DNA of 36,786 bases from an uncultured Clostridia bacterium (GCA_944393335.1 CALXZV010000001.1:1-36786); one strand, 5' to 3'. Shown: positions 6,291-33,300, counted from the stretch's first letter. Numbers and translations are program-made. The notes: generated by a model from the letters alone, not told the origin.

Positions 6291-6315
6291 TGTTAATTGG
6301 AACAGTTATTGTTGA
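6291..6315. repeat. Degenerate type-1 repeat unit abutting the pilC stop codon
   Basis: tgttaattggaacagttattgttga resembles tgtcaattgggacggttctatttga but has several substitutions. Confidence 0.4.
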
Positions 6316-6497
6316 TTGTCAATTGGGACGGTTCTATTTGACACAATTAAATTAATACTTTATTCGCCAAACAATATATCTATTTTCACATTCTCGGCGC
6401 GGGTCGCTGCTTGCTCCAGCTTGAGAATGAAAAATAGACATATTGCTTTGGCTTTTAAATAGAATTTTGTGTCAATTAGAACCGTCCCAATTGACAA
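6316..6497 (+). mobile_element. 182-bp MITE-like element, copy A (type-1 units as terminal inverted repeats, GC-rich hairpin core)
   Basis: The left end ttgtcaattgggacggttctatttgacaca (6316-6345) is inverted at 6468-6497. The interior forms a long imperfect hairpin (6366-6452) capped by ggcgcgggtcgctgcttgctccagctt. It contains no ORF. Confidence 0.85.
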
Positions 6498-6516
6498 CAA
6501 AAAATAGGAGTATCAT

Positions 6517-7428
6517 ATGAAAATTGGAATAGACATTGGCGGTAGCCATGTTGCTACTGGTTTAGTAGATAAAAATGGTGAGCTTATTTCAAAAGAAAGT
6601 AGAGATATAAATATTTCTAATATAAAAGATGAAAAAAGAGTTGAAAGTCTACTTGTAGAAATTATAGAAAATGAAATCAGCATGCTTTTAGAAAAAAATG
6701 ATTTTACAGTAGGTGACATATCTAAAATTGGTATTGCAGTTCCAGGAAGCCCAAAAAACGGGAAAATTCGCAATTTGGTAAATTTACATATAAAAGAATT
6801 TAATTTGGGTGAAGAATTAAACAAAAAATACAAAGTAAATGTAAAGATAAAAAACGACGGAAAATGTGCAGGTTTAGCAGAAAAGAAATATGGCTCATTA
6901 AAAAAATACAAAGACTGTGTATTTTTATGCATAGGAACTGGAGTAGGAAGTGCTGTATTTTTAAATGATGATTTGTTAGAACCAAAGCAAAACCCGGGTT
7001 TTGAGTTTGGTCATATGGTTATCGACAAAGAAGGTAGAAAGTGCAATTGTGGAAAAAATGGATGTTTTGAAACATATGCCTCAATGAAAAGATTTAAGGC
7101 AGAAGCAATTAACACATTTAAAATGAGCAATACAACAGAAGCAGAAGAAGTGCAAATGTATATTAGAAAAAACATGGATAAAAAGAGAGTGAGAGACTTT
7201 GTAGATGAATATTTAGAAAATGTCAGCATTGGCCTTTCAAACATAATAAATATATTCGAGCCACAAGCTATTAGCTTTGGAGGAAGTTTTTCATATTATT
7301 GTGATATATTTTTGCCAATATTGAAAGAAAAATTGGATAAACTAAAATTTAATAAAGATACAAAAGTAGATTTAACTACAGCAAAATTAAAAAATGATGC
7401 AGGAATAATAGGAGCAACTGAAATATAA
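6517..7428 (+). CDS. glcK: ROK-family glucokinase
   Basis: 303 aa. It has the N-terminal ATP-binding motif MKIGIDIGGSHV and the ROK zinc motif GH..(x)..CNCGKNGCFE. Confidence 0.85.
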   Translation: MKIGIDIGGSHVATGLVDKNGELISKESRDINISNIKDEKRVESLLVEIIENEISMLLEKNDFTVGDISKIGIAVPGSPKNGKIRNLVNLHIKEFNLGEELNKKYKVNVKIKNDGKCAGLAEKKYGSLKKYKDCVFLCIGTGVGSAVFLNDDLLEPKQNPGFEFGHMVIDKEGRKCNCGKNGCFETYASMKRFKAEAINTFKMSNTTEAEEVQMYIRKNMDKKRVRDFVDEYLENVSIGLSNIINIFEPQAISFGGSFSYYCDIFLPILKEKLDKLKFNKDTKVDLTTAKLKNDAGIIGATEI

Positions 7429-7466
7429 AATATTTGTCTTTCAAATAATATTAAGCATAAGATAAA

Positions 7467-7496
7467 AATAGGCTTGTTTTCACTAACAAGCCTATT
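7467..7496. terminator. Bidirectional stem-loop between convergent glucokinase and small-ORF genes
   Basis: aataggcttgtt (7467-7478) pairs perfectly (12 bp) with aacaagcctatt (7485-7496). An A-run lies upstream and a T-rich stretch downstream. Confidence 0.65.
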
Positions 7497-7695
7497 AATT
7501 GTTTTCTTGATTATCTTCCTTTGAGTCTTTAGGATTTACATTTTCAGGAATGATAATAATTTGTTTTTGATTTTCTTCAGGTTTTTCCATAATTAAACTA
7601 TCTCTAACATTGGAAATATTTAAGTCTTTAGAATTACCTTTAACAATTTCAATTTTCTTTGGTTTACGCTCATTTTCATTATTTTCTTCTATCAT
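7495..7695 (-). CDS. Small acidic hypothetical protein
   Basis: 66 aa, rich in Glu, Asn and Lys. A GAGGTGG RBS lies about 6 nt upstream of the ATG. I recognise no family. Confidence 0.5.
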   Translation of the reverse strand: MIEENNENERKPKKIEIVKGNSKDLNISNVRDSLIMEKPEENQKQIIIIPENVNPKDSKEDNQENN

Positions 7696-7768
7696 AGTAC
7701 CACCTCATATTTTTAAATACTTAAACTTTATATAAAAAATATAACATAAAAAAATGAAGATGTCAAAG

Positions 7769-7950
7769 TTGTCAATTGGGACGGTTCTAATTGACACAAT
7801 TAAATTAATACTTTATTCGCCAAACAATATATCTATTTTCACATTCTCGGCGCGGGTCGCTGCTTGCTCCAGCTTGAGAATGAAAAATAGACATATTGCT
7901 TTGGCTTTTAAATAGAATTGTGTGTCAAATAGAACCGTCTCAATTGACAA
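7769..7950 (+). mobile_element. 182-bp MITE-like element, copy B (same orientation as copy A)
   Basis: The interior is identical by eye to copy A. I found only 4 substitutions, all in the terminal type-1 units (7769-7798 and 7921-7950). Confidence 0.85.
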
Positions 7951-7953
7951 CTT

Positions 7954-8220
7954 TTATAATCTCTTGAATTTCTCAACAATTGGATTTAATAAATCTTGAA
8001 CATCAATTTTAAGAACAACTGCAATTGCACAAATTTCATAATCTCTAACAGTTCTTTGATTATTCTCAATTCTATGCAAACTAGTTATTGGAAGATTTAC
8101 GTTTAGGAGCATTAATTGATTAGAAAGAGTTTCGAGAGATATACCTTTCTCTTTGCGTTTCTCTCTTAAGATTGGACCAATTAGGTTAAGATTACCCTCA
8201 TATTTTCCAAAATTATTCAT
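7954..8220 (-). CDS. XRE-family helix-turn-helix transcriptional regulator
   Basis: 88 aa. LREKRKEKGISLETLSNQL...SLHRIENNQRTVRDYEICAIAVVL is a typical Cro/C1 HTH. Confidence 0.8.
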   Translation of the reverse strand: MNNFGKYEGNLNLIGPILREKRKEKGISLETLSNQLMLLNVNLPITSLHRIENNQRTVRDYEICAIAVVLKIDVQDLLNPIVEKFKRL

Positions 8221-8367
8221 AAAATATCCTTTCTGCTATGTAAAGAAAATATGTATAATAGACAAAAAATTACATAAATATAAAAAATTTCAAATACAAA
8301 AATATTATATAAGTAAATTAAAAAATGCATATTACCACCAGTGTGAAAAAACGAGAAAATTTGTTCC

Positions 8368-8396
8368 TTGCAAACTTTAGTAATAGATGATATAAT
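8368..8396 (+). promoter_or_regulatory. Sigma-A-type promoter upstream of scpB
   Basis: TTGCAA (8368-8373), 17-nt spacer, TATAAT (8391-8396). Confidence 0.6.
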
Positions 8397-8501
8397 AAAT
8401 GCATTATAAAAATTGTGTAGAAACTGGGTTTTACAAGGACATAAAAGTAAAATATTTAAATATTAAAATAACAAAATATTATAAAAGGATAAAAAATAAA
8501 T

Positions 8502-9176
8502 ATGGAAAAAGAAAAATTAAAAGGGGTAATTGAAGCAATTTTATTTTCAGCAGGGAGAGTAGTAAAAATTAGAGAACTTATGACATTATTAGAAACAAAT
8601 TCAGATGAAATTATTTCTAGTATAGCTGAGCTTGAAAAAGAATATAATGCACCAGCTAGAGGTCTTGAAATAGTACGCGTAGAAGATGGCTATCAGATGG
8701 CTTCTAAAAAAGAATATCATGAATACATTTATCCAATGCTTAGCAAGAGTGCAAAACCAACTCTTTCGCAGGCTTCACTTGAAGTTCTTAGTATAATTGC
8801 TTACAACAGTAGAGCAACAAAAGCAGACATAGACACCATAAGAGGAGTAGACTCATCAGCTTCTTTATATAGGTTATTAGAATATAACTTAATTGAGCAA
8901 GCAGGTAAGGCTGACTTACCAGGTAAGCCAATGACCTATAAGGTAACAGACGAATTTCTAAAAATGTTTGGATTAAAGAGTATTAAAGAATTGCCAGATT
9001 TGCCTAAGTATAAATTGGATAGCAATAGACAAATAGTTATAGATGAGTTGGAAGATCAGGAGAGCAGCGCTGACAAAAATATGGATGAGGATAATGAACA
9101 AAATTACCAAGAAAATAGTAATTTGCAAAAAAATACGGAGGCTCCAGAACCAAAAGATGGTGAGGATAACATTTAA
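8502..9176 (+). CDS. scpB: Segregation and condensation protein B
   Basis: 224 aa. It aligns by eye to B. subtilis ScpB (IEAILFSAG..., LSQASLEVLSIIAY, IDTIRGVDS, FLKMFGLKSIKELP) and carries an acidic C-terminal extension. Confidence 0.9.
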   Translation: MEKEKLKGVIEAILFSAGRVVKIRELMTLLETNSDEIISSIAELEKEYNAPARGLEIVRVEDGYQMASKKEYHEYIYPMLSKSAKPTLSQASLEVLSIIAYNSRATKADIDTIRGVDSSASLYRLLEYNLIEQAGKADLPGKPMTYKVTDEFLKMFGLKSIKELPDLPKYKLDSNRQIVIDELEDQESSADKNMDEDNEQNYQENSNLQKNTEAPEPKDGEDNI

Positions 9177-9193
9177 AAGCTATTAGGATAAAA

Positions 9194-9294
9194 TTTTCAG
9201 TTGGGGACGGTCCTAAAACGAAAAAAATACGATTTTTATTTATTGAGCCATAATTGAATGATTTTTTCGTTTTAGGACCGTCCCCAACTGAAAA
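9194..9294. repeat. Type-2 repeat doublet (inverted pair) between convergent scpB and the DUF4364 gene
   Basis: ttttcagttggggacggtcctaaaacgaaaaaa (9194-9226) is inverted at 9262-9294. The spacer is about 35 nt, and the right arm abuts the stop codon at 9295. Confidence 0.85.
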
Positions 9295-9828
9295 TTATTT
9301 TTTAGTTAGCAATCCAATTAATTGAGGGTATAAATTTGTAGCGTTTTTCTTCCAATTATCTACAATATTTTGAGCTTGTTCTCTTGAATATGCAAAAGTT
9401 TTTATTTCAAAAATAACCTCATTTTCTTCAACAATTTTGCACACAACTTCATATTCGTTTTCACTCTTTGGAGTGTACTCAGAAACAATAGACTGAGCAT
9501 TTTCAAACATTTCTATATTACTTTTTAAATTAGTGTCAACTCGAAGTTTTATAATTCCTGGCAATATGTCTAAAGTTAAATCTAAGGTGTTTTTGCCAGC
9601 TTCAGTAAGTTCATATACATCTTGAGTTTCTTTTGTATAGCGTACAACAAATTTGGCATCAATTAAATCTAGCAAAAATTGTTGAAAGTAAAAGTAGTTT
9701 AAATCAACAGCTGAACTAACAATACTATACAATGCATCATTTGTAATTGGCTTTTTAACAGTATCTAATACATATAAAATTAAAACTTTGTTTTCAGCCA
9801 ATGTTTCGCTATCAGATGTAATTTTCAA
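9295..9828 (-). CDS. DUF4364-family protein
   Basis: 177 aa. The N-terminal winged-helix-like NKVLILYVLDTVKKPITNDALYSIV and overall layout match my recollection of DUF4364 proteins found near scpB in Clostridia. Confidence 0.7.
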   Translation of the reverse strand: MKITSDSETLAENKVLILYVLDTVKKPITNDALYSIVSSAVDLNYFYFQQFLLDLIDAKFVVRYTKETQDVYELTEAGKNTLDLTLDILPGIIKLRVDTNLKSNIEMFENAQSIVSEYTPKSENEYEVVCKIVEENEVIFEIKTFAYSREQAQNIVDNWKKNATNLYPQLIGLLTKK

Positions 9829-9927
9829 ATTAATTTCAACTCCTTATACGTATTTGATTATAAATTTTATATAAAGAAAAACACAAATATGTTGGCAAAT
9901 AAACAATAAAATTTATAAAATCAAAAA

Positions 9928-9956
9928 TATTATAGCACAAAATGAGTGCAAATTCA
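9928..9956 (-). promoter_or_regulatory. Sigma-A-type promoter for the DUF4364 gene
   Basis: On the minus strand: TTGAAT (9956-9951), 17-nt spacer, TGcTATAAT extended -10 (TATAAT at 9933-9928). Confidence 0.6.
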
Positions 9957-10043
9957 ACAGTTTATGAAAGTCGAATAAGAAAAAGATACTGTTTAGTAAG
10001 AATATGTAGGCTATTTTAAATATATTACAAAACAGTAAGACTT

Positions 10044-10070
10044 TGTCAAAAAATGTCGAATTTTGTCGAA
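10044..10070 (+). promoter_or_regulatory. Three phased Spo0A-box-like heptamers
   Basis: TGTCAAA (10044), TGTCGAA (10054) and TGTCGAA (10064) lie in direct orientation with exact 10-bp spacing. The 0A-box consensus is TGNCGAA. Confidence 0.55.
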
Positions 10071-10099
10071 AAGTTTTGGAAAAATTTAGCACAAATATA

Positions 10100-10128
10100 T
10101 TGACATTTTATGGCAAATAATGTAATAT
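10100..10128 (+). promoter_or_regulatory. Sigma-A-type promoter with no obvious downstream CDS for about 620 bp
   Basis: TTGACA (10100-10105), 17-nt spacer, TAATAT (10123-10128). Confidence 0.5.
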
Positions 10129-10750
10129 ATAGTCATGCTACTTAGCAAGGCAAAATATTATTCACACATATTTTAATTATAATATTGTACAAGCTGTTTT
10201 TATAATTAAAATAAATTCAAAAGAAAATTAATTTATAATAAAAACATTATAATCTACAAAAGAAATCCAAAAATATTTAAATAATTACATATAATTAGTT
10301 ATTAAGCTTGTAGAGGAAACAAAAAATAGGTTAATGGTAATTAATTCTAATAATGGAAAAATTCTTCCTTTCCATATTGTAAGACACTGCCTTAATAATA
10401 CATATTTTTGATTTGTCTTCAAAATTTCCCCCAAAAAAATAAATTGTGCCCCCCAAAAGCTCCAATTTATATTTAGTTTCCTCTACAACTCCTTTTATTA
10501 TATTATATTTTGTCAAGATCCTCTTACTAACTATTTCTCCATAGTTAGTAAGGGGGCAATATTATAATTTTAAAGGTAAATTATAAAAATTTAAAAAACA
10601 GAAAATGATGAAAAAACATTGAAAAATATTTTAAATTTTGTTAAAATAAATTCATAAATTAAAAAAATTGATGTGTAGATTTAAAAATAGTTAAATAAAA
10701 TTTTTTAGAAAATAAAATTTAAACTTAAAATAAAGAGAGGAGAATAATCA

Positions 10751-11640: not shown

Positions 11641-11664
11641 TTTCAATATAAAGCTGAGTGGTGC

Positions 11665-13132
11665 TTATAAATTATACATATTATCTTTTTTAATCCATAC
11701 AGAAACGCTACCACCATTTACATAAAAAATGCCATTTCCATCTTTATCTACATACACCGTTTCTTTTATATTACCAGTGCAGTCGTACAATATACTATTT
11801 GCCAAGTTTTTACCAACATTCATGCATTTATGACCACCGTCGCCATCACTTAAAATAACAGCCATTCCAGAATCTTGGTGGTAATAATCACCTTCTCTAA
11901 CCCAACCTATAATATTTGCGTCATCTAAATAATCTCTTTGTTTGCCATATGCCAAATATTTTCTAGCTAAAAGTAATATGTTCAAAATTTCTTTCATAGG
12001 TGGTATATTTTTAAAAGGCACACCATAATAATCTCCATAAAATACACAAGGAATTCCTTCTTGCCTTAGCAAAATGCAAGCATAGGCAAGAGGCTTAAAC
12101 CATTCTTTAACCCATGACTCTAAGCTTTGACCGAGGCTCAGTATCATGATTATCTACAAACGTTACAGCTTTTGTAGGTCTTCTGTCTACTAATGTATCT
12201 TCAAAAAGATTTCGCATATCATAATGCCCAAAACTTTCAGATGCAATTTTAAAATGGTCATGAAGCGGAACATCAAATAGAGTATCTATTTCATCATTTC
12301 TTTGCAAATAATTTAGAAGCGAATCAATATTGCAACTAAAATATTCTCCAACAGTAAATAAATCTTTGTCAGTTTCGGCTTTTAGATCATGAAGCCATCT
12401 TTTGTAAAAAGAAGAGCGAATATGCTTAATTGCATCTAACCTAAAACCATCTACATTAGTTTGCTCTAAAAACCATTTGCCCCATCTAAAAAGGTCATCA
12501 ACAACATCCAAATTGTTAAAATCTACATCACAACCCATTAAATAGTCATAATTGCCAAGTTCTTTATCAACATCATTGCTCCAATGCTTTCCATAAAATC
12601 TAAAAATACCATGTTCTTTTTGCTTGTCATCATAGTCTATGCCATTAAAATGCGACCAGTCTAAATTGAAATCTGAATAGGTATTATTTCTACCTTTAAA
12701 ATTAAATTTAGTCCAAGCTTCAATTGTTCTATATGTTCCAATAACTTCGTTTCTATTATTTGGGTTAACTTTATATGCAATAATTTCTTCTTTTTCATCT
12801 GCTCCAAATCTATGATTTAAAACAATATCTGCCAAAACTTTTATACCACATTTTTGCAAATATTTAATTGCATCTAAGTATTCTTGCTTAGTGCCATATT
12901 TGGTACGAATACTGCCTTTTTGCATAAATTCGCCCATATCATATAGGTCATATACACCATAACCTGTATCATTTATTCCACCAGCCGACTTAAAGCAAGG
13001 TGGAAGCCAAATATAATTTATACCTAATTTTTTTAAATCTTTACCAACATTTTGAAGGCTTTTCCATAACATGCAATCATTTGGCATGTACCATTCAAAA
13101 TATTGCATCATTGTATCATTTGTTTCTTTCAC
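11665..13132 (-). pseudogene. Cytoplasmic GH13 alpha-amylase (Bacillus licheniformis/AmyA type) disrupted by a +1 frameshift
   Basis: ORFs 12107-13132 and 11665-12147 together align to this amylase family (MQYFEWYMPND, VDGFRLDAIKHI, FVDNHDTEP | GQSLESWV..WFKPLAYA). The frames switch at cct-c-ggt, near plus-strand position 12133. There is no signal peptide. Confidence 0.85.
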
Positions 13133-13319
13133 TTAAATATCATCCTTTCTGACTTTAAGCTAAAATCTATATTTTGAAATATTATATCACTAGAAAAATT
13201 TCTTGACAATTCCTTTTTTTAGTTATGCTCATATTTGAGCTAAAATTTTAAAAAACAATAGAAATTTATGAAAAAATATTATATAATAATGAAGATAAAA
13301 AATTCGAAAGGAAATTCCA

Positions 13320-14477
13320 ATGGATAAAATCAATGAATTAGTACAGTGGATAGGGTCAATAGAGCTTTCACAAGTTATAAATGTAATTATTTGCATAATA
13401 GCAATTATATTTACAGTAATAATTAGCCCATTTTTAAGTTTAGCAATTGCTAAAATATTTGGATGGAAAAAAACAAAAGCAGAATTAAAAAATAGTGTGG
13501 TATACAATGCATCAAAATATTTTCTTATAGCTACAGGTGTACTTTTTTCAACAAAAATATTGGGGCTAAATGAAGACTTAAACAATTTTTTAGATAAATT
13601 ATATAGGATTGCAATTGTGTGGATAATAGCCAAAACTGCATCAGATGTTTTTTCAAATAGAAGGCTACTTACATCAAGGCTAAAAGATAAAGCAAATGAC
13701 CCAATGGTAAATATAATTAACAAAATTATTAAAGTAGTTTTGTATATACTTGCAGCATATTTGACGCTTAAAGAATTTAACTACGATCTAGGTGGAATTT
13801 TAACAGGGTTAGGACTAAGTACTGCCATTATTGCTTTAGCTGCTCAAGATACAGTAAAAGACGTTTTCTCGGGACTTTCAATATTCTGGGATAAACCATT
13901 TGCAATAGGCGATTGGGTAGAAATAGGTGATGTATCTGGAACAGTTGAAAATATTACATTTAGAAGTACAAAATTAAGAACAACAGAAGACACCATAATA
14001 ACTATTCAAAATTCAGCAATAAGCTCAGAGAACATTATAAACTGGGGAGTAATAAAGAAAAGAATATATAAAGCAAACTTAAAACTTCCACTAGAAACAG
14101 AAGAAGTTACAGTAGAAAAAGTTTTAAATAGAATTAGATTTATTTTAAAATACAATAAAGAAATTATAAAAAATTCAGTAAGTGTGCATCTTAATGAAAT
14201 AAAAGAAGACGGAATTAATATAAACATTTACTTAGAAACAAATATTACAGCATATGGAGCATATCAAGATTTTTGTAACAAACTTAACCTTACATTGCTT
14301 AATATACTAGAAACCCAAGGCATTAAGCTTGCTTATCCAGGACAAAACATATACATAAAAAATGTTGAAGAAGGATACCAAATAAATAAAAAAGAAAATC
14401 ATCAACAATTTAATTTAGAACAGGAAAAACACATAAAACCAGTTAAAGTAAATAATACGGCAAAAAACAAGAAATAA
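13320..14477 (+). CDS. Mechanosensitive ion channel (MscS family)
   Basis: 385 aa. N-terminal TM helices are followed by the MscS core FSGLSIFWDKPFAIGDWVEIGDVSGTVENITFRSTKLRT. Confidence 0.85.
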   Translation: MDKINELVQWIGSIELSQVINVIICIIAIIFTVIISPFLSLAIAKIFGWKKTKAELKNSVVYNASKYFLIATGVLFSTKILGLNEDLNNFLDKLYRIAIVWIIAKTASDVFSNRRLLTSRLKDKANDPMVNIINKIIKVVLYILAAYLTLKEFNYDLGGILTGLGLSTAIIALAAQDTVKDVFSGLSIFWDKPFAIGDWVEIGDVSGTVENITFRSTKLRTTEDTIITIQNSAISSENIINWGVIKKRIYKANLKLPLETEEVTVEKVLNRIRFILKYNKEIIKNSVSVHLNEIKEDGININIYLETNITAYGAYQDFCNKLNLTLLNILETQGIKLAYPGQNIYIKNVEEGYQINKKENHQQFNLEQEKHIKPVKVNNTAKNKK

Positions 14478-16875: not shown

Positions 16876-16883
16876 AATTTTTT

Positions 16884-16950
16884 AAGTTGGGGACGGTCCT
16901 AAATCGAAAAAATTGTCAAAATTGTTAAAAGGGACGGTTCTAAATGACAA
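16884..16950 (+). repeat. Type-2 / type-1 repeat tandem (heterodimer), copy D
   Basis: aagttggggacggtcctaaatcgaaaaaa (16884-16912) is followed directly by ttgtcaaaattgttaaaagggacggttctaaatgacaa (16913-16950). The type-1 unit carries an ~11-nt insertion. Confidence 0.8.
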
Positions 16951-17916: not shown

Positions 17917-17926
17917 TGCATTTTTT

Positions 17927-17984
17927 CAGTTGGGGACGGTCCTAAATCGAAAAAGTTGTCAAATGGGACGGTTCTATTTGACAA
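17927..17984 (+). repeat. Type-2 / type-1 repeat tandem (heterodimer), copy E
   Basis: cagttggggacggtcctaaatcgaaaaag (17927-17955) is followed directly by ttgtcaaatgggacggttctatttgacaa (17956-17984). Confidence 0.85.
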
Positions 17985-18019
17985 CAAAAATCTTAAGAAA
18001 AAACAAGGAGGAAAAAACT

Positions 18020-22048: not shown

Positions 22049-23293
22049 ATGTACAAAGAATATGGAATTAGTGAAGAAACATTTAATTTAGTAAATAAAT
22101 GTGAAAATGAAGTAAAAGAAGAATTTGCCAAAATAAATGAAATTTGCGAGTACAATTCATTAAAGGTTTTAAAAGCATTTCATGACAACAACCTATCTGA
22201 GGTTCATTTTAATGAAACAACTGGATATGGATATGATGATATTGGAAGAGAAACTATTGAAAACATATATAGCCAAATATTTGGAGTAGAAGACAGCTTA
22301 GTTAGAGGCCAATTTATATCTGCTTCACACGCTTTAAATGTAACACTATTTGGACTTTTAAGACCAGGGGACACTATGCTTAGCATATGTGGCAAGCCTT
22401 ATGATACACTTGATGAAGTAATAGGAATTAGAGAAAATGCAAGTTCACTTAAATCATTTGGCGTAAAATATGAACAAATAGATTTAATAAATAATGATTT
22501 TGATTATGAACAAATAAAAACTAGACTAAGTCAAAAAAACGTTAAATTAGTAGAAATTCAACGTTCAAGAGGTTATGCCCTAAGAAATAGCATAACTTTA
22601 GACAAAATACAAAAAGTAATAAAGTTAATAAAAGAAGTAGACTCAAATGTTATTATAATGGTGGACAATTGCTATGGAGAATTTACTAATAAAGAAGAGC
22701 CATCAAACTTTGGCGCAGATGTATGTGTAGGTTCATTAATAAAAAACCTAGGTGGAGGAATAGCTCCTAATGGTGCATATGTTGTTGGAAGAAAAGATTT
22801 GATACATTTAGTTGGTGAAAGACTAACTCTTCCGGGAGAAGGCAAAGATGTTGGACCAACACTAGGAATGAATAAAAAGATTTTACAAGGTTTGTTCTTT
22901 GCACCAAGCGTAGTAGCAAGTAGCTTAAAAACAGCAGTCCTTACAAGTAAAGTAATGGAAAGCTTAGGCTACAAAGTACAACCAAGATTTAATGAACCTA
23001 GAACAGACATAGTTCAAACTATAGAATTTAATGATAGAGAAAAATTAATAAAATATTGTCAAGGAATACAAATGGGGTCTCCAGTAGACTCAAACTCAAT
23101 TCCAGTACCAGGGGATATGCCTGGATATGAGGACCAAGTCATAATGGCAGCAGGAGCATTTACACAAGGTTCATCAATAGAACTAAGCTGTGATGCACCT
23201 TTAAGACCACCATATTTAGCATTTCAGCAAGGTGGCTTAACCTACGAATATGGCAAGCTTGGTTTAATGAAAGCAGTTGAAAATATTAAATAG
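22049..23293 (+). CDS. YnbB/aluminium-resistance family PLP-dependent enzyme (methionine gamma-lyase-like)
   Basis: 414 aa. Family-typical segments include HFNETTGYGYDDIGRE, VEIQRSRGY and SLIKNLGGGIAP. Confidence 0.8.
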   Translation: MYKEYGISEETFNLVNKCENEVKEEFAKINEICEYNSLKVLKAFHDNNLSEVHFNETTGYGYDDIGRETIENIYSQIFGVEDSLVRGQFISASHALNVTLFGLLRPGDTMLSICGKPYDTLDEVIGIRENASSLKSFGVKYEQIDLINNDFDYEQIKTRLSQKNVKLVEIQRSRGYALRNSITLDKIQKVIKLIKEVDSNVIIMVDNCYGEFTNKEEPSNFGADVCVGSLIKNLGGGIAPNGAYVVGRKDLIHLVGERLTLPGEGKDVGPTLGMNKKILQGLFFAPSVVASSLKTAVLTSKVMESLGYKVQPRFNEPRTDIVQTIEFNDREKLIKYCQGIQMGSPVDSNSIPVPGDMPGYEDQVIMAAGAFTQGSSIELSCDAPLRPPYLAFQQGGLTYEYGKLGLMKAVENIK

Positions 23294-23304
23294 AAAGGAT
23301 TTTT

Positions 23305-26356: not shown

Positions 26357-26428
26357 TTGTCAAATGGGACGGTTCTAAATGACAATCACACTGATGTGAT
26401 TGTCATTTAGAACCGTCCCATTTGACAC
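26357..26428. repeat. Type-1 repeat doublet forming a near-perfect 34-bp-arm palindrome between spo0A and ftsZ
   Basis: ttgtcaaatgggacggttctaaatgacaatcaca (26357-26390), loop ctga, inverted copy (26395-28) with 33 of 34 positions complementary, followed by aaaaattttttt. Confidence 0.9.
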
Positions 26429-26573: not shown

Positions 26574-27551
26574 GTGATAGACCACGAACCAGTAAAGAGA
26601 ACAAAGGACTTAATAAAAATAAAAGTAATAGGTGTTGGTGGAGGCGGAAACAACGCTGTAAACCAAATGATAGTATCGGATGTAGATGGAGTAGAATATA
26701 TATTAGTAAATACAGAAAAGGGCATACTTGAAAGAGCAAATACAAATGGATGCAAAACATTACAAATAGGAAAAGAAATTGCTCAAGGTTTAGGTGCAGG
26801 AGCTAATCCAGATGTTGGAGAAAAAGCAGCTAAAGAGAGCATTGATGATATAGATAAAATTCTTGATGGAACAGATTTGCTATTTGTTACAGCAGGAATG
26901 GGTGGAGGTACTGGAACAGGTGCTATACCAGTAATTGCTGAAGAAGCTAAAAAGAGAGGTATTTTAACAATAGGAATAGTAACAAAGCCATTTTCTTTTG
27001 AAGGAAAATTAAGAAGTGTTAGAGCAAACATTGGTATAGACAAGCTTAAACCTAATGTAAATGCACTTATAGTAATATCAAACGATAAGCTATTACAAAA
27101 TACAGCAAATAATATATCTATATTAAATGCATTTAAAATGACAGATGATATATTAAAACAAGGTATTCAATCAATAACAGATATTATAAATTCTGTAGGT
27201 ACAATAAATGTAGACTTTGCAGATGTTCAAACTATACTTGGATATCAAGGCTTTTCATATATGGGTATAGGTGAGTCAAGTGGAGATAATAAAATAGTTG
27301 AAGCTACAATGAACGCTTTAAATAACCCACTTACAGAAACAGGAATAGATGGTGCAAAAGGTGTTATATTTAATATTAAAGGTGGCGAAGATATTAGCCT
27401 AGAGGATATTAACAAAAGTGCAAGTTTAATTGGTGAAAAGGTAAGTCCGGATGCAAATGTTATTTTTGGAACAGTTATAGATGAAGACCTTGGTGACAAT
27501 GTAGTTGTAACAGTTGTAGCTACAGGTGTTGAAGAAAAAGTTGAAAAATAA
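26574..27551 (+). CDS. ftsZ: Cell-division GTPase FtsZ, core domains only (no C-terminal linker or tail)
   Basis: 325 aa with a GTG start. Motifs are GVGGGGNNAVN and the tubulin signature GMGGGTGTGAIPV, plus TKPFSFEG. The protein ends at VVATGVEEKVEK, right after the globular core. Confidence 0.9.
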   Translation: MIDHEPVKRTKDLIKIKVIGVGGGGNNAVNQMIVSDVDGVEYILVNTEKGILERANTNGCKTLQIGKEIAQGLGAGANPDVGEKAAKESIDDIDKILDGTDLLFVTAGMGGGTGTGAIPVIAEEAKKRGILTIGIVTKPFSFEGKLRSVRANIGIDKLKPNVNALIVISNDKLLQNTANNISILNAFKMTDDILKQGIQSITDIINSVGTINVDFADVQTILGYQGFSYMGIGESSGDNKIVEATMNALNNPLTETGIDGAKGVIFNIKGGEDISLEDINKSASLIGEKVSPDANVIFGTVIDEDLGDNVVVTVVATGVEEKVEK

Positions 27552-28145: not shown

Positions 28146-28155
28146 AAACAAGTAT

Positions 28156-28208
28156 AAAACTTTTTAATTGGTCATATATTTTAAAAGACTAATTAAAAAG
28201 TTTTTTTT
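28156..28208 (+). terminator. Rho-independent terminator
   Basis: An 18-bp stem, aaaactttttaattggtc (28156-28173) with gactaattaaaaagtttt (28187-28204), has one mismatch and runs into a T8 tract. Confidence 0.75.
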
Positions 28209-28276
28209 CGTGCATATAAAAAAGTAGTATTGCAATAAAAAGGTTATAGGTAATCCAATGCAAAAACCTAAATCAA

Positions 28277-29248: not shown

Positions 29249-29361
29249 TAGTTCAATTACTATAAAGTTCTTAATAAATAAGACAAAATTAATATTTATA
29301 ACTATTAAAAGTTTATACTAAAAGCAAAAGAAAGGAGATTTGTATAAAAGATTATACAAAA

Positions 29362-30033
29362 ATGTTTATGCAAATAAGAATAGATTTTAAAATTTTTATT
29401 ATAATATTAATATTTTTAATTACAAGAAACATAGGAATATATGCCACATTAATGTTCTTTGCATTAATACACGAGTTAGGGCATTTATTATGTGGTCTGA
29501 TTCTTGGCTTTAAGCCAGAAAGTATAAGCATAATTCCATTTGGCTTTAAACTAGGATTTAAAGTAAAATGTGATGATTACAATATAAAAGTAAAAAAAGG
29601 TAGCAGACTAACAGTAAAAAAGATATTAATTGCATTAGCTGGACCACTTACAAATGCTTTTTGCATTTTGATTTTATTTTTAATAAATTTTTTAAGTAAA
29701 GATATAAATTTAGAGCAATTACAAAATGCCATTTATGCTAATATTCTTCTTATATTATTTAATTTAATACCCATTTATCCATTAGATGGTGGAAGAATAA
29801 TGCAAGGATTAATACATATATTTATAGGTCTAAAAGAAAGCTATTCTTATGCAAAAACAGTTACAAATATAAATGCAATTTTGCTTACTGCTATTTCTAG
29901 CATTTTAATACTTTATTACAAAAATATAGCCATATTATTAGTTATAATTTACTTGTGGCTAATGGTGTATAAATGTAATAAGGAATACAGGTTAAAAGAA
30001 AAGATATATAGCAATTTTAAAGATAATATTTAA
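29362..30033 (+). CDS. spoIVFB: M50 site-2 protease, SpoIVFB-like, without CBS domain
   Basis: 223 aa polytopic protein. HELGH lies in TM2 and NLIPIYPLDGGRI in a later TM segment. The start codon is uncertain because the RBS is distant. Confidence 0.75.
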   Translation: MFMQIRIDFKIFIIILIFLITRNIGIYATLMFFALIHELGHLLCGLILGFKPESISIIPFGFKLGFKVKCDDYNIKVKKGSRLTVKKILIALAGPLTNAFCILILFLINFLSKDINLEQLQNAIYANILLILFNLIPIYPLDGGRIMQGLIHIFIGLKESYSYAKTVTNINAILLTAISSILILYYKNIAILLVIIYLWLMVYKCNKEYRLKEKIYSNFKDNI

Positions 30034-30123
30034 ATTTATAATATGATTGTTCAAAAATAATTTGATTTTAAATAGAGCTTTTTGTGATTAACTTCATAAC
30101 AAAATCAAATTAACATAAAACAC

Positions 30124-30152
30124 TTGCATTATCTAACATTTTATGGTATACT
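30124..30152 (+). promoter_or_regulatory. Sigma-A-type promoter upstream of ORF 30300
   Basis: TTGCAT (30124-30129), 17-nt spacer, TGgTATACT (TATACT at 30147-30152). Confidence 0.55.
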
Positions 30153-30299
30153 AATTATATTAGTGATGATTAAGCCATTAAAGCCAATTCGATATTAAAA
30201 AATAAACGTAAATAGACAGTGCAAAAATTTAATATCAAATAGATTTGCATTAAAAAATAAATAAAATAATGGCAAATAAAAGGAGGAATCACAATATAA

Positions 30300-30674
30300 A
30301 TGAGTAAAATATTAGATAAAATAAAAGGTTTTGTACATTCATTAACAAGTATGTTTCAAGAAAATGACCAAGGAGATGAAGACTATTTAAAACCAGATAC
30401 AAAAGAGGCAAAAGAATTAGCCTCAGCTATGGAGCCTGCAGTTAAAAGAATGAAAGAAATGGAAGCTAAAAGAGAAAAAGAAGAAAAAGATAGAATAGCA
30501 TGGCTTAAAAATTTAAGAGAAGGTGCTGTAACAGAACAAGAAAGCGTTACTCCAAAATCTAATGAAGTACAAGTTAAAGGAATAGCACCAAAAGTTAAAA
30601 TAGGACAAAGTCAAGACCGTACTATGCAAAGCGATAGCTCTCAAAATAAAGATGATTTAGAATTAGGACAATGA
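30300..30674 (+). CDS. Hypothetical highly charged protein
   Basis: 124 aa, Lys/Glu-rich, no TM segment, AGGAGG RBS upstream. I recognise no family. Confidence 0.5.
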   Translation: MSKILDKIKGFVHSLTSMFQENDQGDEDYLKPDTKEAKELASAMEPAVKRMKEMEAKREKEEKDRIAWLKNLREGAVTEQESVTPKSNEVQVKGIAPKVKIGQSQDRTMQSDSSQNKDDLELGQ

Positions 30675-30696
30675 TTCAAAAATTATTATAATTTTT

Positions 30697-30757
30697 AACC
30701 TAAGGTTACAACTAAAATTAATGTGCAAACATTAAAGTAATCTTAGGTTTTATTTTT
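30697..30757 (+). terminator. Compound stem-loop terminator
   Basis: aacctaag (30697-30704) pairs with cttaggtt (30742-30749). There is an inner hairpin, and ttattttt follows. Confidence 0.55.
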
Positions 30758-30771
30758 CCGTAAAAATGCTG

Positions 30772-30833
30772 TGTCAATTGGGACGGTTCTATTTGACACA
30801 AAATAGTGTCAAATAGAACCGTCCCAATTGACA
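30772..30833. repeat. Type-1 repeat doublet (REPIN-like), copy G
   Basis: tgtcaattgggacggttctatttgaca (30772-30798), spacer caaaatag, perfect inverted copy (30807-30833). Confidence 0.9.
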
Positions 30834-30922
30834 AAAAAATTAAATCTTTAATCAATCAAAAAACTCTTGAAAAAAACATAAAAATAGTATATAAATATAT
30901 TTAAGAAAAATGGTAAAGGAAG

Positions 30923-31666
30923 ATGAAAATGCAAAAGATTAAAAGTGAAAGAGGAGTTACACTACTTATATTAATGATTACTATAGTAGTTCTTGCTCTA
31001 ATAAGTATTCCAATTATAGTAAACACAACGGATATATCAGAATTACAAAGATACACATATTTTAAAGCAGATATAGATAAATTAAGAGAAGCAATAGATG
31101 CAACATATGCAGATATGGACGACCTATCTACAATTGGACCAATATATACAGGTGATTATAGCTTTTTAAGCAAAGTCCAAGGTAGTGATCCAGTAGCAAA
31201 TCCTAATGATGGCAATGTATATTATGTAATAAGTTTAACAAATTTAAATTCTTACATAAATGCTCAAATAAGTCTAAAATATGGAACTGGAAACAAAGAA
31301 GAAACATATGAAAATAACGAATATAGCGGTACAGACGTTTATATAATAAATGAACAATCAAAAACCATATACTATACAAGTGGTGTAGAATATAAAGGTG
31401 TAACATACTATAGACTACCAGAAAGCTTTACTGCACAAACACAATTTTTTGTAGTATCATATGATGCCAATGGTGGTACAAATGCACCAGATATGCAATC
31501 TGTTGATTCTAGAGGTGATGCTGTAACTATAGGAAATGCACCAACAAGAGCAGGATATACATTTAAGGGCTATTTAGATAGTAATACAAATACTTTATAT
31601 CAACCAGGGGATATTTATATAGTATCAGATACAATAATATTAGTGGCACAATGGGAACAAAACTAA
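30923..31666 (+). CDS. Pilin-like protein (prepilin-type leader) with C-terminal Listeria-Bacteroides repeat domain
   Basis: 247 aa. The leader is KSERG/VTLLILMITIVVLAL. The C-terminus VSYDANGGTNAP....GYTFKGY.......Y.PGD........LVAQW fits the Listeria-Bacteroides (flg_new) repeat. The ATG at 30929 has better RBS spacing. Confidence 0.7.
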   Translation: MKMQKIKSERGVTLLILMITIVVLALISIPIIVNTTDISELQRYTYFKADIDKLREAIDATYADMDDLSTIGPIYTGDYSFLSKVQGSDPVANPNDGNVYYVISLTNLNSYINAQISLKYGTGNKEETYENNEYSGTDVYIINEQSKTIYYTSGVEYKGVTYYRLPESFTAQTQFFVVSYDANGGTNAPDMQSVDSRGDAVTIGNAPTRAGYTFKGYLDSNTNTLYQPGDIYIVSDTIILVAQWEQN

Positions 31667-31697
31667 TATTTTAGAAAAATTTCCAGTTTGGCGGTTG

Positions 31698-31778
31698 TTG
31701 TCAGTTGGGATGGGGTTGTCAATTGGGACGGTTCTATTTGACACTATTTTGTGTCAAATAGAACCGTCCCAACTGACA
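31698..31778. repeat. Type-1 repeat doublet, copy H, with partial reduplication in the left arm
   Basis: The left arm reads ttgtcagttggga + tggggttgtcaattggga + cggttctatttgaca. The spacer ctattttg is the reverse complement of the copy G spacer. The right arm is tgtcaaatagaaccgtcccaactgacaa (31751-31778). Confidence 0.85.
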
Positions 31779-31807
31779 ACTCATCGGAAAATCCTAATGA
31801 AAAAGTG

Positions 31808-31836
31808 CTTGACAAGTAAAGCATTATATTGTATAA
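31808..31836 (+). promoter_or_regulatory. Consensus sigma-A promoter for tRNA-Met
   Basis: TTGACA (31808-31813), 17-nt spacer, TGtATAAT-type extended -10 with TATAAT at 31831-31836. The tRNA starts about 20 nt downstream. Confidence 0.75.
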
Positions 31837-31855
31837 TACTAATTGTCGCAAATAA

Positions 31856-31932
31856 TGGCGAAGTAGCTCAGTTGGCTAGAGCATCCGGTTCATACCCGGC
31901 AGGTCAAGAGTTCGAATCTCCTCTTCGCCACC
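31856..31932 (+). tRNA. tRNA-Met (anticodon CAT), elongator type, CCA-encoded
   Basis: Hand-folded cloverleaf. Acceptor stem is ggcgaag/cttcgcc, D arm gctc/gagc, anticodon loop ttCATac, T loop ttcgaat. G1-C72 argues against an initiator, and the TTCATAC loop resembles Bacillus elongator Met rather than Ile2. Mismatches are T27-C43 and A50-C64. Confidence 0.85.
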
Positions 31933-31981
31933 AAAAAATAAATAAATGCCATAAACACATTTATTTATCTCATTTTCTATA

Positions 31982-32026
31982 AAACTAGCATACTTCAATT
32001 TAATTTGAGGCATGCTAGTTTTTTTA
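31982..32026 (+). terminator. Rho-independent terminator after the tRNA
   Basis: aaactagcat (31982-31991) pairs with atgctagttt (32012-32021) and runs into a T tract. Confidence 0.75.
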
Positions 32027-32139
32027 TTAACACTTTTTTAACACACTAGTTTAGAAAAAACTATTTTAGTGACAACTTTATTTTCTCTGTAAATCAGCGA
32101 TAATTCCATTTATTAACAGTAACGTTTGTGAGAGCAAAA

Positions 32140-33171
32140 TCACAAATTAAAATTAAACATAGGTATTTGAAGTATAACAAAAGTATACGCAGTAGCAAGT
32201 ATGGCTTGCAAAATTTTACCTATTATGTATGGCTTTATAGACAATTTCTCCTTAGAAACCACGCTTAGTATTTGTAGCATTACAGAAAAGCCACCAAATC
32301 CAAGCAAAAATGCGCTTAGTAAAATATTTGTAGAAATTGCTTTTACATGGATACTACTTATAGCATTTAGCCCATTTGTAAGTTCTATTATTCCAGATAA
32401 AGTACCTGAAATAAAATTGCTATTTCCAAACAAAGGAGATAAAAATTTTGCAATTATATTTAATAGTCCAAAATTTTTTAATATAGAAATTATTACTGAA
32501 AATATTACAACAAATCCACCAATCATCATTATAGTTTTTATGCTAGAAATTATACTGTTAGATAAGACTTCTCCTAAATTCGCAAAACTTATACTCTTAT
32601 GACTAATTTTTACATAATCTTTATTTATAGATTTGTATTTACTTCCCAGTTTTTTGCCAAAAATAATTCCAACAGAAAGAGATGCTAAAATATGAGTACA
32701 TAGTAAGATAAGTCCAATTGTAGTGCTGCCAAACATAGATATTCCCACAGTTCCTATGATAAAAAGTGGACCAGAGTTGTTGGTATATGCAAGCATTAAC
32801 TCTGCCTCTCTTTTGGTACACAAGCCTTCTTTATATATTTGACATACAGTTTTAGCTCCTACGGGGTAGCCACTAAGCATTCCCAAAATTAAAGGGTAAG
32901 CCGTACAACCGGGCATATTAAAAATAGGGCGCATAAATTTGTCCAGTTTTTTACTCACAAAATTAACAACATTTGTGTAGCTCAAAAGCTCAGTTGCAAC
33001 TAAAAATGGAAAAAGTGAAGGCACAACCGAGTTAGCCCACAAACTCAAGCCTGATTTAGTTGCAGACAAATTGCTAGCAGAAAATACTACTAAACAAAAT
33101 AAAAATAATATAAAAATAATTGGCAAAATATTTCTTTTTAAAGAAATGCAATAAAATTTAAAACTTTTCAT
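32140..33171 (-). CDS. ylbJ: Sporulation integral membrane protein YlbJ (nucleoside-recognition/Gate domain family)
   Basis: 343 aa polytopic protein. GLSLWANSVVPSLFPFLVATELL and the paired Gate-like halves are typical of YlbJ. Confidence 0.8.
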   Translation of the reverse strand: MKSFKFYCISLKRNILPIIFILFLFCLVVFSASNLSATKSGLSLWANSVVPSLFPFLVATELLSYTNVVNFVSKKLDKFMRPIFNMPGCTAYPLILGMLSGYPVGAKTVCQIYKEGLCTKREAELMLAYTNNSGPLFIIGTVGISMFGSTTIGLILLCTHILASLSVGIIFGKKLGSKYKSINKDYVKISHKSISFANLGEVLSNSIISSIKTIMMIGGFVVIFSVIISILKNFGLLNIIAKFLSPLFGNSNFISGTLSGIIELTNGLNAISSIHVKAISTNILLSAFLLGFGGFSVMLQILSVVSKEKLSIKPYIIGKILQAILATAYTFVILQIPMFNFNL

Positions 33172-33196
33172 AATTTTAATATATGCTTGTATTATT

Positions 33197-33300
33197 AAAA
33201 TATGATGTCCAATTAAAGTATTTTTCAGTTGGGGACGGTCCTAAATCGAAAAAATCTTTAATTGGACATCATATTTTAAATTAGGGACGTTTCTAAATGA
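33197..33300 (+). repeat. Type-2 unit nested inside a perfect 22-bp inverted repeat, followed by a degenerate type-1 unit (copy I)
   Basis: aaaatatgatgtccaattaaag (33197-33218) and its exact reverse complement (33256-33277) flank cagttggggacggtcctaaatcgaaaaaa (33226-33254). A degenerate ttagggacgtttctaaatga follows (33281-33300). Confidence 0.85.

Follow-up and report, generated by a model that had tools for sequence, protein, structure and literature searches.

The closest published description of the repeats analyzed here is that of the TIRtrons and their TIRYT proteins, with the TIR motif GGGGWSAS (Di Nocera et al. 2013, PMC3733652). TIRtron/TIRYT probably corresponds to TnpA-Y1 subclass 2.1 (Quentin et al. 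2018, PMC6006769) and to RAYT Group 1 (Bertels et al. 2017, PMC5581495). Subclass 2.1 proteins are ~238 aa long and combine NHVH, FQ/W[EQ] and Y..(L/N)NP motifs with a C-terminal HTH-like domain (PMC6006769, Table 1). In the accessible text of the TIRtron paper, the named examples are non-Firmicutes, the repeat families are termed 'moderately abundant', and neither 'Firmicutes' nor 'Clostridi' occurs (PMC3733652). Group 1 was reported to be 'also found in the Clostridia', with flanking 16-mers of low abundance only (PMC5581495), and no REP-like sequence was found beside subclass 2.1 genes (PMC6006769). Canonical REPs have a conserved 5' GT[AG]G at the foot of the hairpin (PMC6006769). The CGTC-tagged REPs carry their tag at an unpaired terminus and have an 8-9 bp stem, a 4-5 nt loop, a CCA tail and no associated transposase (Di Nocera et al. 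2013).

We analyzed a stretch of 36,786 nucleotides from an uncultured Clostridia bacterium (CALXZV010000001.1:1-36786, hereafter the window), for which a preliminary description had proposed a dense repeat at ten intergenic loci. Scanning with the pattern GGGACGGTYCTA and at most one mismatch retrieved 18 units at 10 intergenic loci, where 0.00 were expected by chance in 100 shuffles. The core matches lie at 6325, 6477, 7778, 7930, 9204, 9273, 16890, 16931, 17933, 17965, 26366, 26408, 30780, 30814, 31725, 31759, 33232 and 33284, and the core is exact in 16 of the 18. A covariance model of 100 units drawn from many taxa, run on the whole window with filters off, recovered the identical 18 units and no further site; its only other matches at E<=1 were two weak ones on the opposite strand, overlying units already counted. 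All 18 units fall in gaps between ORFs, in a window that is ~74% coding. The proposal that no coding sequence is interrupted thus stands for the window and does not extend to the sister strains, where a DpaA-like ORF extends at its 3' end into one doublet. Within the same clade we counted 130 units in 249 kb (0.52 per kb). Only tRNA-Met reached an Rfam gathering score in the window, and the sub-threshold Rfam matches were to generic miRNA-hairpin models. We did not find the consensus GGGACGGT(T/C)CTA in published work, nor any REPIN population described in Firmicutes, in agreement with the initial view that this is not a named Firmicute repeat. The kind of element is known; the present family is unnamed and unusually dense.

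Each unit forms a hairpin, in which a stem of 7-9 bp that covaries across taxa carries an invariant top, GGG(G)ACGGTYC. The mini inverted repeat first described as 6 nt long is present, and extends to as many as 8-9 bp. The lower stem is lineage-specific (TGTCAA/TTGACA in type 1, TTTTCAG/TCGAAAA in type 2), and the sequence next to the stem varies; the invariant columns, GGGACGGT.C, are at the hairpin top. The columns flanking the stem lack the canonical 5' GT[AG]G of REPs. Stem covariation, scored on 100 distinct units taken from many taxa, was 0.365, compared with 0.163 in shuffles (0 of 500 reached the observed value) and at most 0.144 in slid registers, although related copies do not count as independent evidence copy by copy. 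Two-sided changes were seen in 11 of 11 stem pairs. In DNA folding, a single type-1 unit reached z = -6 and doublets went as low as -16.

The units occur as ends of long elements, as inverted doublets and as direct tandems. Two long REPIN-like elements with paired termini, at 6316..6498 and 7769..7951, were confirmed as 183 bp each and 98% identical. The first has type-1 termini at 6316-6346 (+) and 6467-6498 (-) and an interior of ~120 nt that is itself a long imperfect hairpin; the right-hand core of the second has one mismatch (GAGACGGTTCTA). The inverted doublets and direct type2-type1 tandems were likewise located where they had been reported. The type-2 doublet (9192..9296) has 100% complementary arms (9192-9226, +; 9262-9296, -) separated by a 35-nt spacer, with an ssDNA fold of -39.8 kcal/mol. 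A type-1 doublet (26357..26428; fold -39.7 kcal/mol) starts 21 nt after the spo0A stop codon, its core 31 nt after; this site is occupied in all strain contigs that cover it, with an additional half-unit in front in L105. Another type-1 doublet, of 63 nt, lies at 30772..30834 with the spacer AAAATAG, and a further one at 31716..31779, upstream of the tRNA-Met promoter, has the spacer TATTTTG, the reverse complement of that of the 30772 doublet. This last doublet had been given a start at 31698; the doublet is real, and 31698..31715 (+) is a truncated half-unit (TTGTCAGTTGGGATGGGG) immediately before it.

The direct tandems open with a type-2 unit. At 16878..16913 (+) this unit starts 15 nt after a histidine-kinase stop codon and is followed by a type-1 unit at 16922..16950 (+), which has a weak left stem (TTGTTAAAA) and is preceded by a stem fragment, TTGTCAAAA. 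In the second tandem, the type-2 unit at 17923..17954 (+) adjoins the top-scoring copy of the window, a type-1 unit at 17955..17986 (+) that folds into a hairpin of 13 bp around an ACGGT loop (-8.9 kcal/mol, z = -6.3). The tandem reported near 33226-33300 is also present: its type-2 unit (33221..33255, +) forms the tip of an ~85-nt palindrome (33195-33279), and its partner at 33276..33305 (+; core match at 33284) turned out to be a degenerate type-1-like unit (GGGACGTTTCTA) with a poor stem and 28 bits in the covariance model.

Doublets almost always follow one polarity. In the clade sample, neighboring opposite-strand pairs were arranged (+,-) in 37 cases and (-,+) in 2. The core-to-core distance in doublets is 45 nt, most spacers are 4-7 nt long, and several genomes share the spacer TATTTTG, in one orientation or the other.

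The same hairpin flanks a transposase gene elsewhere. A Y1_Tnp gene lies between unit(+) and unit(-) with a TGTCAA-type stem in L025, L041, L043 and L064, and is bracketed likewise, with other stems, in Formimonas, Sporomusa, L111 and L202. Among loci of metagenomic homologues, an exact GGGACGG in the expected orientation was found upstream at 49 of 75 loci and downstream at 42 of 72, counting for each side only loci whose flank was long enough; of the 67 with both flanks, 34 had it on both sides and 48 on at least one (we calculated a chance rate of ~1.4% per flank). The Sporomusa element, of ~0.9 kb, ends exactly at the hairpins; two copies of it are near-identical from outer hairpin edge to outer hairpin edge, with a few mismatches in the stretches shown. 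This gene-bearing Sporomusa element is multi-copy and inserted in genes, an IS-like behavior. The Y1 HUH gene is the sole gene recurrently bounded by units. As initially noted, no transposase is in view here: the search for a Y1 gene flanked by units succeeded in other Bacillota genomes, and no Y1 gene of any kind was found in the window or in 152 kb of blocks of a same-species MAG (BRZ_HP__bin8).

The bracketed Y1 proteins are 221-266 aa long and contain LM(D/E)NHVHLL, GHLFQDRF and RYI(H/L)NNP. The HUH motif (N-H-x-H) and R-Y-I-x-x-N-P are among the residues that do not vary (N59, H60, H62, R118, Y119, I120, N123 and P124). Four of these proteins scored 52-82 bits with the NCBIfam model REP_Tyr_transpos (cut-off 80; one protein above it, three below) and 22-23 bits with transpos_IS200 (cut-off 55). 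The top PDB match was 4ER8, TnpArep, although weak (E = 0.0086), and the L025 protein gave a weak HTH_23 match below the cut-off (E = 7e-4). The source annotations read RayT or REP-associated tyrosine transposase. Judged by sequence, the bracketed protein is a better match to RAYT/TIRYT than to IS200.

Units are also gained and lost among close strains. The site at 23293/23305 is empty in the window and in L103. In L102 and L104 it is filled by a type-2 doublet, L105 has a triplet there, and in L106 a long element is nested in a doublet; the flanking protein is identical among the strains that differ. Comparison of the filled and empty states of this site shows no target duplication, and no direct repeats flank the six doublets or long elements of the window. 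The same-species MAG, in which the flanking genes are 97% identical, lacks the doublets at 30772 and 31716. Another site is filled in L001 and collapsed in L004, and hairpin slippage accounts better than transposition for some polymorphisms, such as that in L004. The interior of the 183-bp elements recurs at several unrelated loci, and its orientation is the same in the window and six strain contigs at both sites.

We consider it likely that the repeats are non-autonomous REP/REPIN-type (TIRtron-type) elements of a Bacillota-wide family, whose autonomous form would be a REPtron/TIRtron of ~0.9-1 kb with a RAYT/TIRYT-like Y1 HUH transposase gene between inverted copies of the hairpin. The REPIN-like reading follows from the same hairpin, in the same (+ ... 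-) polarity as in the doublets, flanking a Y1/HUH gene in other Bacillota. The earlier proposal of mobilization in trans by a RAYT-type Y1 enzyme is likewise supported by these flanking genes, the protein scores, the polarity and the polymorphic sites. A doublet, unit(+)-spacer-unit(-), would then represent both ends of the element minus the gene. A transposase supplied in trans would bind the ssDNA hairpin, for instance at a replication fork, and cut and rejoin it through HUH/tyrosine chemistry, so that the doublet would enter intergenic DNA, by copying or by movement, with no target site duplicated. We infer such action in trans in this genome, its ssDNA mechanism and a cut near GGTTC(T). 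Recombination between units and hairpin slippage would produce the singles, half-units, tandems and clusters.

The absence of a Y1 gene from the window and the MAG blocks would also fit a fossil population, in which a past RAYT-type enzyme spread the units, its gene has since been lost, and the strain differences reflect deletion, slippage and recombination. Half-units and degenerate copies do occur, and the difference between L001 and L004 resembles a deletion between the palindromic CAATTG of the arms. However, the gene search covered a small, non-random part of the genome, and both the exact cores and the near-identity of the long elements argue against such a population, as do the empty, single, triple and nested-insertion states at one site beside an identical flanking protein and the doublet differences between 97% identical genomes. 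We therefore regard a fossil population as unlikely. The units could instead be primarily a host module, namely a terminator or attenuator, an mRNA 3'-end stabilizer or a binding site for a nucleoid or regulatory protein, with their spread secondary. Such a module would suit copies that are all intergenic, many of them 15-35 nt past the stop codons of HK, PilC, ScpB and Spo0A, as well as the very stable doublet hairpins and a stem that includes TTGACA (the -35 consensus), followed 16-17 nt on by a TATAAT-like box in some other genomes. Yet a simple scan for terminators picks out no doublet, promoter-like sites show no enrichment, neighboring genes are not conserved, and the hairpin is also the end of a transposase-bearing element; occupancy at several sites varies between near-identical strains, unlike that of a required regulatory site. 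A primary host function thus seems quite improbable, and a role in termination or stability may have been acquired secondarily, by exaptation.

Two further readings were considered. Short non-coding elements between terminal inverted repeats, in two near-identical copies, could be classical MITEs, with the 30-nt termini as TIRs of a cut-and-paste DDE IS and the doublets and 183-bp elements as its deletion derivatives. This is highly improbable given that target-site duplications are missing at every doublet and long element and at the site compared in its filled and empty states, solo units and half-units are common, every terminus is itself a covarying hairpin, and the gene that units recurrently bound is of the Y1 HUH type. 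Clostridial invertible switches have a size and inverted-repeat architecture similar to those of the 183-bp elements, which could accordingly be phase-variable switches flipped by a site-specific recombinase through their inverted repeats. With an interior of constant orientation that is found at unrelated loci, spacers of mostly just 4-7 nt and no adjacent recombinase gene, a switch is barely credible.

The REP/REPIN-type reading can be placed among known systems. Like IS200/IS605 and their PATE-type derivatives, the family has subterminal end hairpins and insertion without target duplication, and it would use HUH/Y1 chemistry. IS200-type end hairpins have the same orientation and are not inverted. 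The IS200 TnpA is ~150 aa long with a Y...Q motif, whereas the Y1 proteins here have Y...NP; on this motif and the transpos_IS200 scores we rejected membership in IS200/IS605. A non-systematic look at the Y1 genes revealed no adjoining tnpB. As in the CGTC-tagged REPs (Di Nocera et al. 2013), head-to-head dimers predominate and the minus strand of the core contains CGTC (CCGTCCC), but here the tetranucleotide is located within the apical region, and the family has an associated Y1 gene.

The likeness to the proteobacterial REP/REPIN-RAYT systems (E. coli REP/BIME with TnpA-REP, PDB 4ER8; Pseudomonas REPINs) includes high-copy short extragenic hairpins, the inverted doublet as the replicating unit, two repeat types in composite arrays, a Y1 gene between inverted repeats (here in other genomes), the lack of target duplication, and top PDB and NCBIfam matches that belong to the RAYT protein family. 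Unlike these systems, the family has its conserved sequence at the hairpin top and no GT[AG]G foot, a protein of another subclass with an extra C-terminal domain, a different host phylum and, in Sporomusa, a multi-copy gene-bearing element located in genes. With TIRtrons it shares a Y1 HUH protein of ~240-265 aa with NHVH, an FQ motif, Y...NP and a C-terminal HTH-like tail, and TIRs that can self-pair and form dispersed families as dimers and clusters. Inverted repeats with a GGGG-rich motif bracket the gene here too, and GGGGACGG may correspond to GGGGWSAS, with which it agrees at 7 of 8 positions, differing at the seventh by a G in place of A. It differs from TIRtrons in its covarying hairpin with an invariant top, its occurrence in many Bacillota lineages and its density of ~0.5 units per kb.

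Within the 36.8-kb window we found 18 matches of GGGACGGTYCTA (at most one mismatch), against 0.00 expected from shuffled sequences. These matches fall exactly at the ten loci named in the preliminary description, which confirms the repeat family reported there. A covariance model trained on 100 units from many taxa, and run on the window without filters, recovered the same 18 units; its other matches were two weak, opposite-strand hits that overlap known units. Two 183-bp elements (6316-6498 and 7769-7951), 98% identical to each other, are bounded by type-1 units in inverted orientation. The remaining arrangements are a type-2 inverted doublet (9192-9296), three type-1 doublets (26357-26428, 30772-30834 and 31716-31779) and three direct type2-type1 tandems (~16878-16950, 17923-17986 and 33221-33305). 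The window is a segment of a Clostridia chromosome (GC 28-29%) with genes for type IV pilus, a ROK kinase, scpB, a two-component system, a sortase, spo0A, an ftsZ-like protein and tRNA-Met. Every ORF spares the units, all 18 of which are intergenic; given that ~26% of the window is non-coding, the calculated probability that ten independent loci are all non-coding is ~1e-6.

The ~120-nt interior of the 183-bp elements (6347-6466 and 7800-7919) folds into a long hairpin with imperfect pairing and a tip rich in GC (CGGCGCGGGTCGCTGC...), and has neither an Rfam match nor an ORF. It is a dispersed module that adjoins type-1 or type-2 units at further loci and in another species of the clade, and was also seen in contigs L106, L109, L061, L089, L074 and L076 of other genomes. 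One type-2 unit is the centre of a ~85-nt palindrome (33195-33279) whose arms, AAATATGATGTCCAATTAAAG and CTTTAATTGGACATCATATTT, are foreign to the repeat family. A terminator-like palindrome at 33841-33871 (GGGGAACGCGTCCC / TTTTTGGGGAACGCGTCCCTAAAAA) looks like the core, yet the covariance model does not recognise it and we rejected it as a unit. At 31809-31837 there is a perfect 12/12 sigma-70 consensus (TTGACA, 17 nt, TATAAT), directly 5' of tRNA-Met (31857-31933) and ~30 nt 3' of a REP doublet. Two other genes deserve mention. The alpha-amylase-like gene on the minus strand (11665-13132) consists of two overlapping ORFs, one catalytic (12107-13132) and one C-terminal (11665-12147); this split is present in 6/6 strain contigs and may reflect a frameshifted pseudogene or a programmed frameshift. 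The FtsZ-family gene that follows spo0A (26574-27551, 325 aa) is split into ORFs of 133 and 137 aa in strain contig L106 and called shorter, at 289 aa, in L105; it could be in decay or dispensable.

We aligned the window units, in register on the core, with units taken from ~90 loci in other genomes. The invariant columns are GGGACGGT.C, and the stem is TGTCAA/TTGACA in type 1 and TTTTCAG/TCGAAAA in type 2, with an outward extension that is variable but complementary. Across 100 distinct units, changes on both sides occur in 11/11 proposed stem pairs, and the covariation score is 0.365 versus 0.163 when shuffled (0/500 reach it) and at most 0.144 with a slid partner. The change from the type-1 to the type-2 stem is largely compensatory (G-C to T-A, T-A to C-G, A-T to T-A). 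When folding was computed for single-stranded DNA, a lone type-1 unit adopted a 13-bp hairpin whose loop is ACGGT (-8.9 kcal/mol, z = -6.3), the one single type-2 unit tested folds no better than shuffled sequence (-3.6 kcal/mol, z = -0.7), and doublets reach -33 to -40 kcal/mol (z = -14 to -16).

We counted 130 units (0.52 per kb) in 249 kb of sequence from the window plus low-GC MAGs related to it. Adjacent opposite-strand pairs in these 249 kb are oriented (+,-) in 37 cases versus (-,+) in two (calculated binomial p ~3e-9), and a 45-nt core-to-core distance with the spacer TATTTTG, or its reverse complement, recurs in several species-level MAGs. The doublet is therefore copied as a whole. 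The exact type-1 19-mer matched more than 87 stretches in a collection of species-representative genomes. Among the matches listed, the hosts span 22-66% GC and include several uncultured low-GC Clostridia (one being BRZ_HP__bin8, a MAG), Clostridium sp. CAG:492, Lachnospiraceae, Oscillospiraceae, Anaerovoracaceae, Syntrophomonas and Selenomonadaceae, with single matches in MAGs labelled Olsenella and Saccharibacteria. Exact 19-mers in MAGs labelled as non-Clostridia (L012, Saccharibacteria; L070, Olsenella; L092, Selenomonadaceae), one of them on an actinobacterial contig of 66% GC (CCTGTCATTGGGGACGGTTCTATTTGACAGG), could be due to horizontal spread of the element or to bin contamination. Viral contigs contained no exact type-1 or type-2 unit and just nine RAYT-like loci, which argues that the element is not phage-borne; the 183-bp element had no BLAST match in plasmid and phage collections.

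The repeats turn over among close relatives. At 23293/23305 the methionine gamma-lyase gene and the gene after it are 11 nt apart, and this site is unoccupied in the window and in strain contig L103. It is filled by a 70-nt type-2 doublet in L102 and L104, by a triplet in L105 and, in L106, by a doublet with a nested type-1 unit and the 120-nt interior. No target duplication is visible between the filled and empty sites of the window and L102-L106. BRZ_HP__bin8 is 97% identical to the window, and its best placement is in the same species. It lacks both doublets at 30772 and 31716 and has a single unit elsewhere, after the preceding gene; its interior module adjoins the type-2 unit at ~33232, replacing the right arm of the 33195-33279 palindrome. 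On the 5' side of the window, contigs L001-L003 carry a doublet versus just TTGTCAATTGACAA in L004 and L005, a difference most readily explained by slippage of the hairpin from the palindromic CAATTG in one arm to that in the other. In the window (31698-31715), as in at least eight other genomes, a complete unit is preceded by truncated tandem half-units (left stem plus GGGACGGTTC), a pattern which suggests that breaks recur immediately 3' of GGTTC(T).

Two rearrangements of other kinds were noticed. Between scpB and a type-2 doublet, L003 holds a 424-aa class-II aminoacyl-tRNA-synthetase-like gene (12660-14060; PF00587 and HGTP_anticodon) of which just the last ~20 nt (GCTATTAGGATAA) are left in the window (9170-9192) and the other strains; this is a gene deletion with its junction away from any repeat unit. 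In a Lachnospiraceae MAG (L081:420-1100) a unit is apparently split, with GGGACGGTTCTA followed by a 17-nt arm (ATAACGTTAAGTTAAGG), an inverted copy of which precedes two more cores; the ~650 bp enclosed include an RHS-like fragment.

An all-against-all comparison of ORFs from the 87 loci listed revealed no conserved neighbour gene besides one for a Y1 transposase. ORFs inside unit(+) ... unit(-) encode a homologous protein of 221-247 aa with a Y1_Tnp/IS200-like domain in four MAGs (L025, L041, L043 and L064). In L025 the units around its single Y1 gene include GTTC as well as GTCC cores; in Pseudomonas, by comparison, each repeat type has a RAYT of its own. This family is large (>7,800 matches at E<=1e-10; 61,525 cluster representatives at E<=1e-3) and is labelled 'REP element-mobilizing transposase RayT' by JGI and 'REP-associated tyrosine transposase' by NCBI. 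Its members have the motifs HUH (NHVH), GHLFQDRF and RYI..NP and score 52-82 bits against NCBIfam REP_Tyr_transpos versus 22-23 bits against IS200; the best PDB match is E. coli TnpArep (4ER8), with both motifs aligned at a weak E of 0.0086. Abi, PARG, DUF6179 and YtxC genes also lie between two units, and we regard them as unrelated cargo or chance.

Two cultured bacteria show the same association. Formimonas warabiya has the same layout with a different stem (GAGTCAGGGGACGGTTCCTTGACTC ... GAGTCAGAGAACCGTCCCCTGACTC), and Sporomusa acidovorans has a near-identical hairpin pair around its Y1 gene. Two Sporomusa copies, each within a haemagglutinin-like gene, are near-identical from outer hairpin edge to outer hairpin edge, with a few mismatches over the stretches displayed; since their identity stops exactly at these edges, the element, ~0.9 kb long, truly ends in the hairpins. 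We also examined 80 metagenomic Y1 homologue loci as an independent set. Exact GGGACGG in the expected orientation was present upstream in 49/75, downstream in 42/72 and, among the loci with both flanks, on both sides in 34/67, where chance would give ~1.4% per flank (calculated); the stems around it are always complementary, and lineage-specific. Contigs L111 and L202 provide more hairpin-flanked Y1 genes. These results support the preliminary reading of the repeats as REP/REPIN-like sequences mobilised in trans by a RAYT. There is no Y1 gene in the window or in 152 kb of BRZ_HP__bin8 blocks, and none of the 80 metagenomic loci carries the window's unit. Four AT-rich-looking homologues picked by amino-acid composition (P0386, P0399, P0231 and P0207) did not include the RAYT of the window species, as their contigs all belong to other organisms and have other stems. 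As a side observation, the Sporomusa region (CP155571, 4593003-4601854) holds at least two near-identical RAYT-bearing copies and several solo hairpins; copies and hairpins sit inside or between filamentous-haemagglutinin-like gene fragments, beside an IS110-type transposase fragment, and in this organism the element behaves like an active, gene-disrupting IS.

Regulatory readings of the units fared less well. The stem TTGACA resembles a promoter element, which we take as coincidence, the promoter scan being without enrichment; simple terminator and promoter scans of the window left the doublets unflagged. Apparent resemblances of the sequence to a CodY box (AATTTTCAG) and a Spo0A box (TGTCAAA) were likewise taken as coincidental. 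Rfam searches at gathering and E-value thresholds returned tRNA-Met only, plus chance miRNA-like hairpins. We consider it probable that the window repeats are elements of the REP/REPIN-TIRtron type, a TIRtron being a Y1 gene bracketed by hairpins. They would be gene-less (REPIN- or MITE-like) members of the Y1-gene hairpin family, in which the doublet would represent both hairpin termini in native (+,-) polarity and the 183-bp element a longer version of it. Singles, half-units and type2-type1 composites may have arisen by rearrangement, as happens in BIME-like arrays. Both IS608 and E. coli TnpA-REP act on single-stranded DNA, where the hairpin is bound, cleaved and rejoined by means of an HUH/tyrosine site. 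By analogy, the enzyme here would act in the same way, a mechanism that fits the absence of target duplications.

REPIN-RAYT systems have been studied as long-lived, vertically inherited 'sequence populations', and to our knowledge this work has been almost confined to Proteobacteria. The family described here brings uncultured gut Clostridia into this picture, with a unit roughly every 2 kb, and connects the repeats with the RAYT group that is both the largest and the least understood, and that lacks a REP partner in published surveys. The conserved GGGGACGG hairpin top offers a simple search key for such elements across Bacillota. Several RAYT contigs terminate at or within repeat units; together with the strain polymorphism, this indicates that the repeats probably fragment metagenome assemblies, which makes them relevant to MAG quality and useful as strain markers. 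Were the repeats to serve as terminators or stabilisers too, they would influence how core genes nearby, spo0A among them, are expressed.

A 5' GT[AG]G foot characterises canonical REPs, which fall into TnpA-Y1 subclasses 2.2, 2.4, 2.5, 2.7 and 2.8 (PMC6006769); this foot is absent from the window family. The Y1 proteins fit subclass 2.1 (Bertels' Group 1) by NHVH, FQ, a length of ~240-265 aa and a C-terminal region with one weak, sub-threshold HTH_23 match. Quentin et al. found no REP-like sequences for subclass 2.1 and treated it as equivalent to the TIRYTs that Di Nocera et al. 2013 described (PMC6006769). In the latter account, TIRYTs are RAYT-like genes between TIRs with GGGGWSAS in common; some of these TIRs are self-complementary, and they make up 'moderately abundant' dispersed families with dimers and clusters (PMC3733652); GGGGACGG agrees with the motif given there at 7/8 positions. 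Group 1 was reported 'also in the Clostridia', with flanking 16-mers of low abundance only (Bertels et al., PMC5581495). A tentative proposal, to which we give rather little credence, is that genuine REPIN populations of very high density are maintained in gut Clostridia by subclass 2.1 / Group 1 RAYT-like enzymes, which would recognise the hairpin by its invariant GGGGACGGTYC top and not by a GTAG foot, and would cut inside the top after GGTTC(T). Such a cut site is suggested by the arrays of half-units, [left stem + GGGACGGTTC]n, that recur in at least eight genomes; if the proposal is true, recognition and cleavage geometry would be unlike those of E. coli TnpA-REP and IS608. Searches of the literature with core strings returned only unrelated eukaryotic and viral primer matches, and we found no paper that joins REPIN, RAYT and Firmicutes or gives the repeat consensus. 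Given this and the fit to subclass 2.1 and the TIRYTs, the window element is an unnamed, new family of an already known kind of element, distinguished by its density, by the breadth of its conserved hairpin top across Bacillota and by providing a clear repeat partner for the largest RAYT group.
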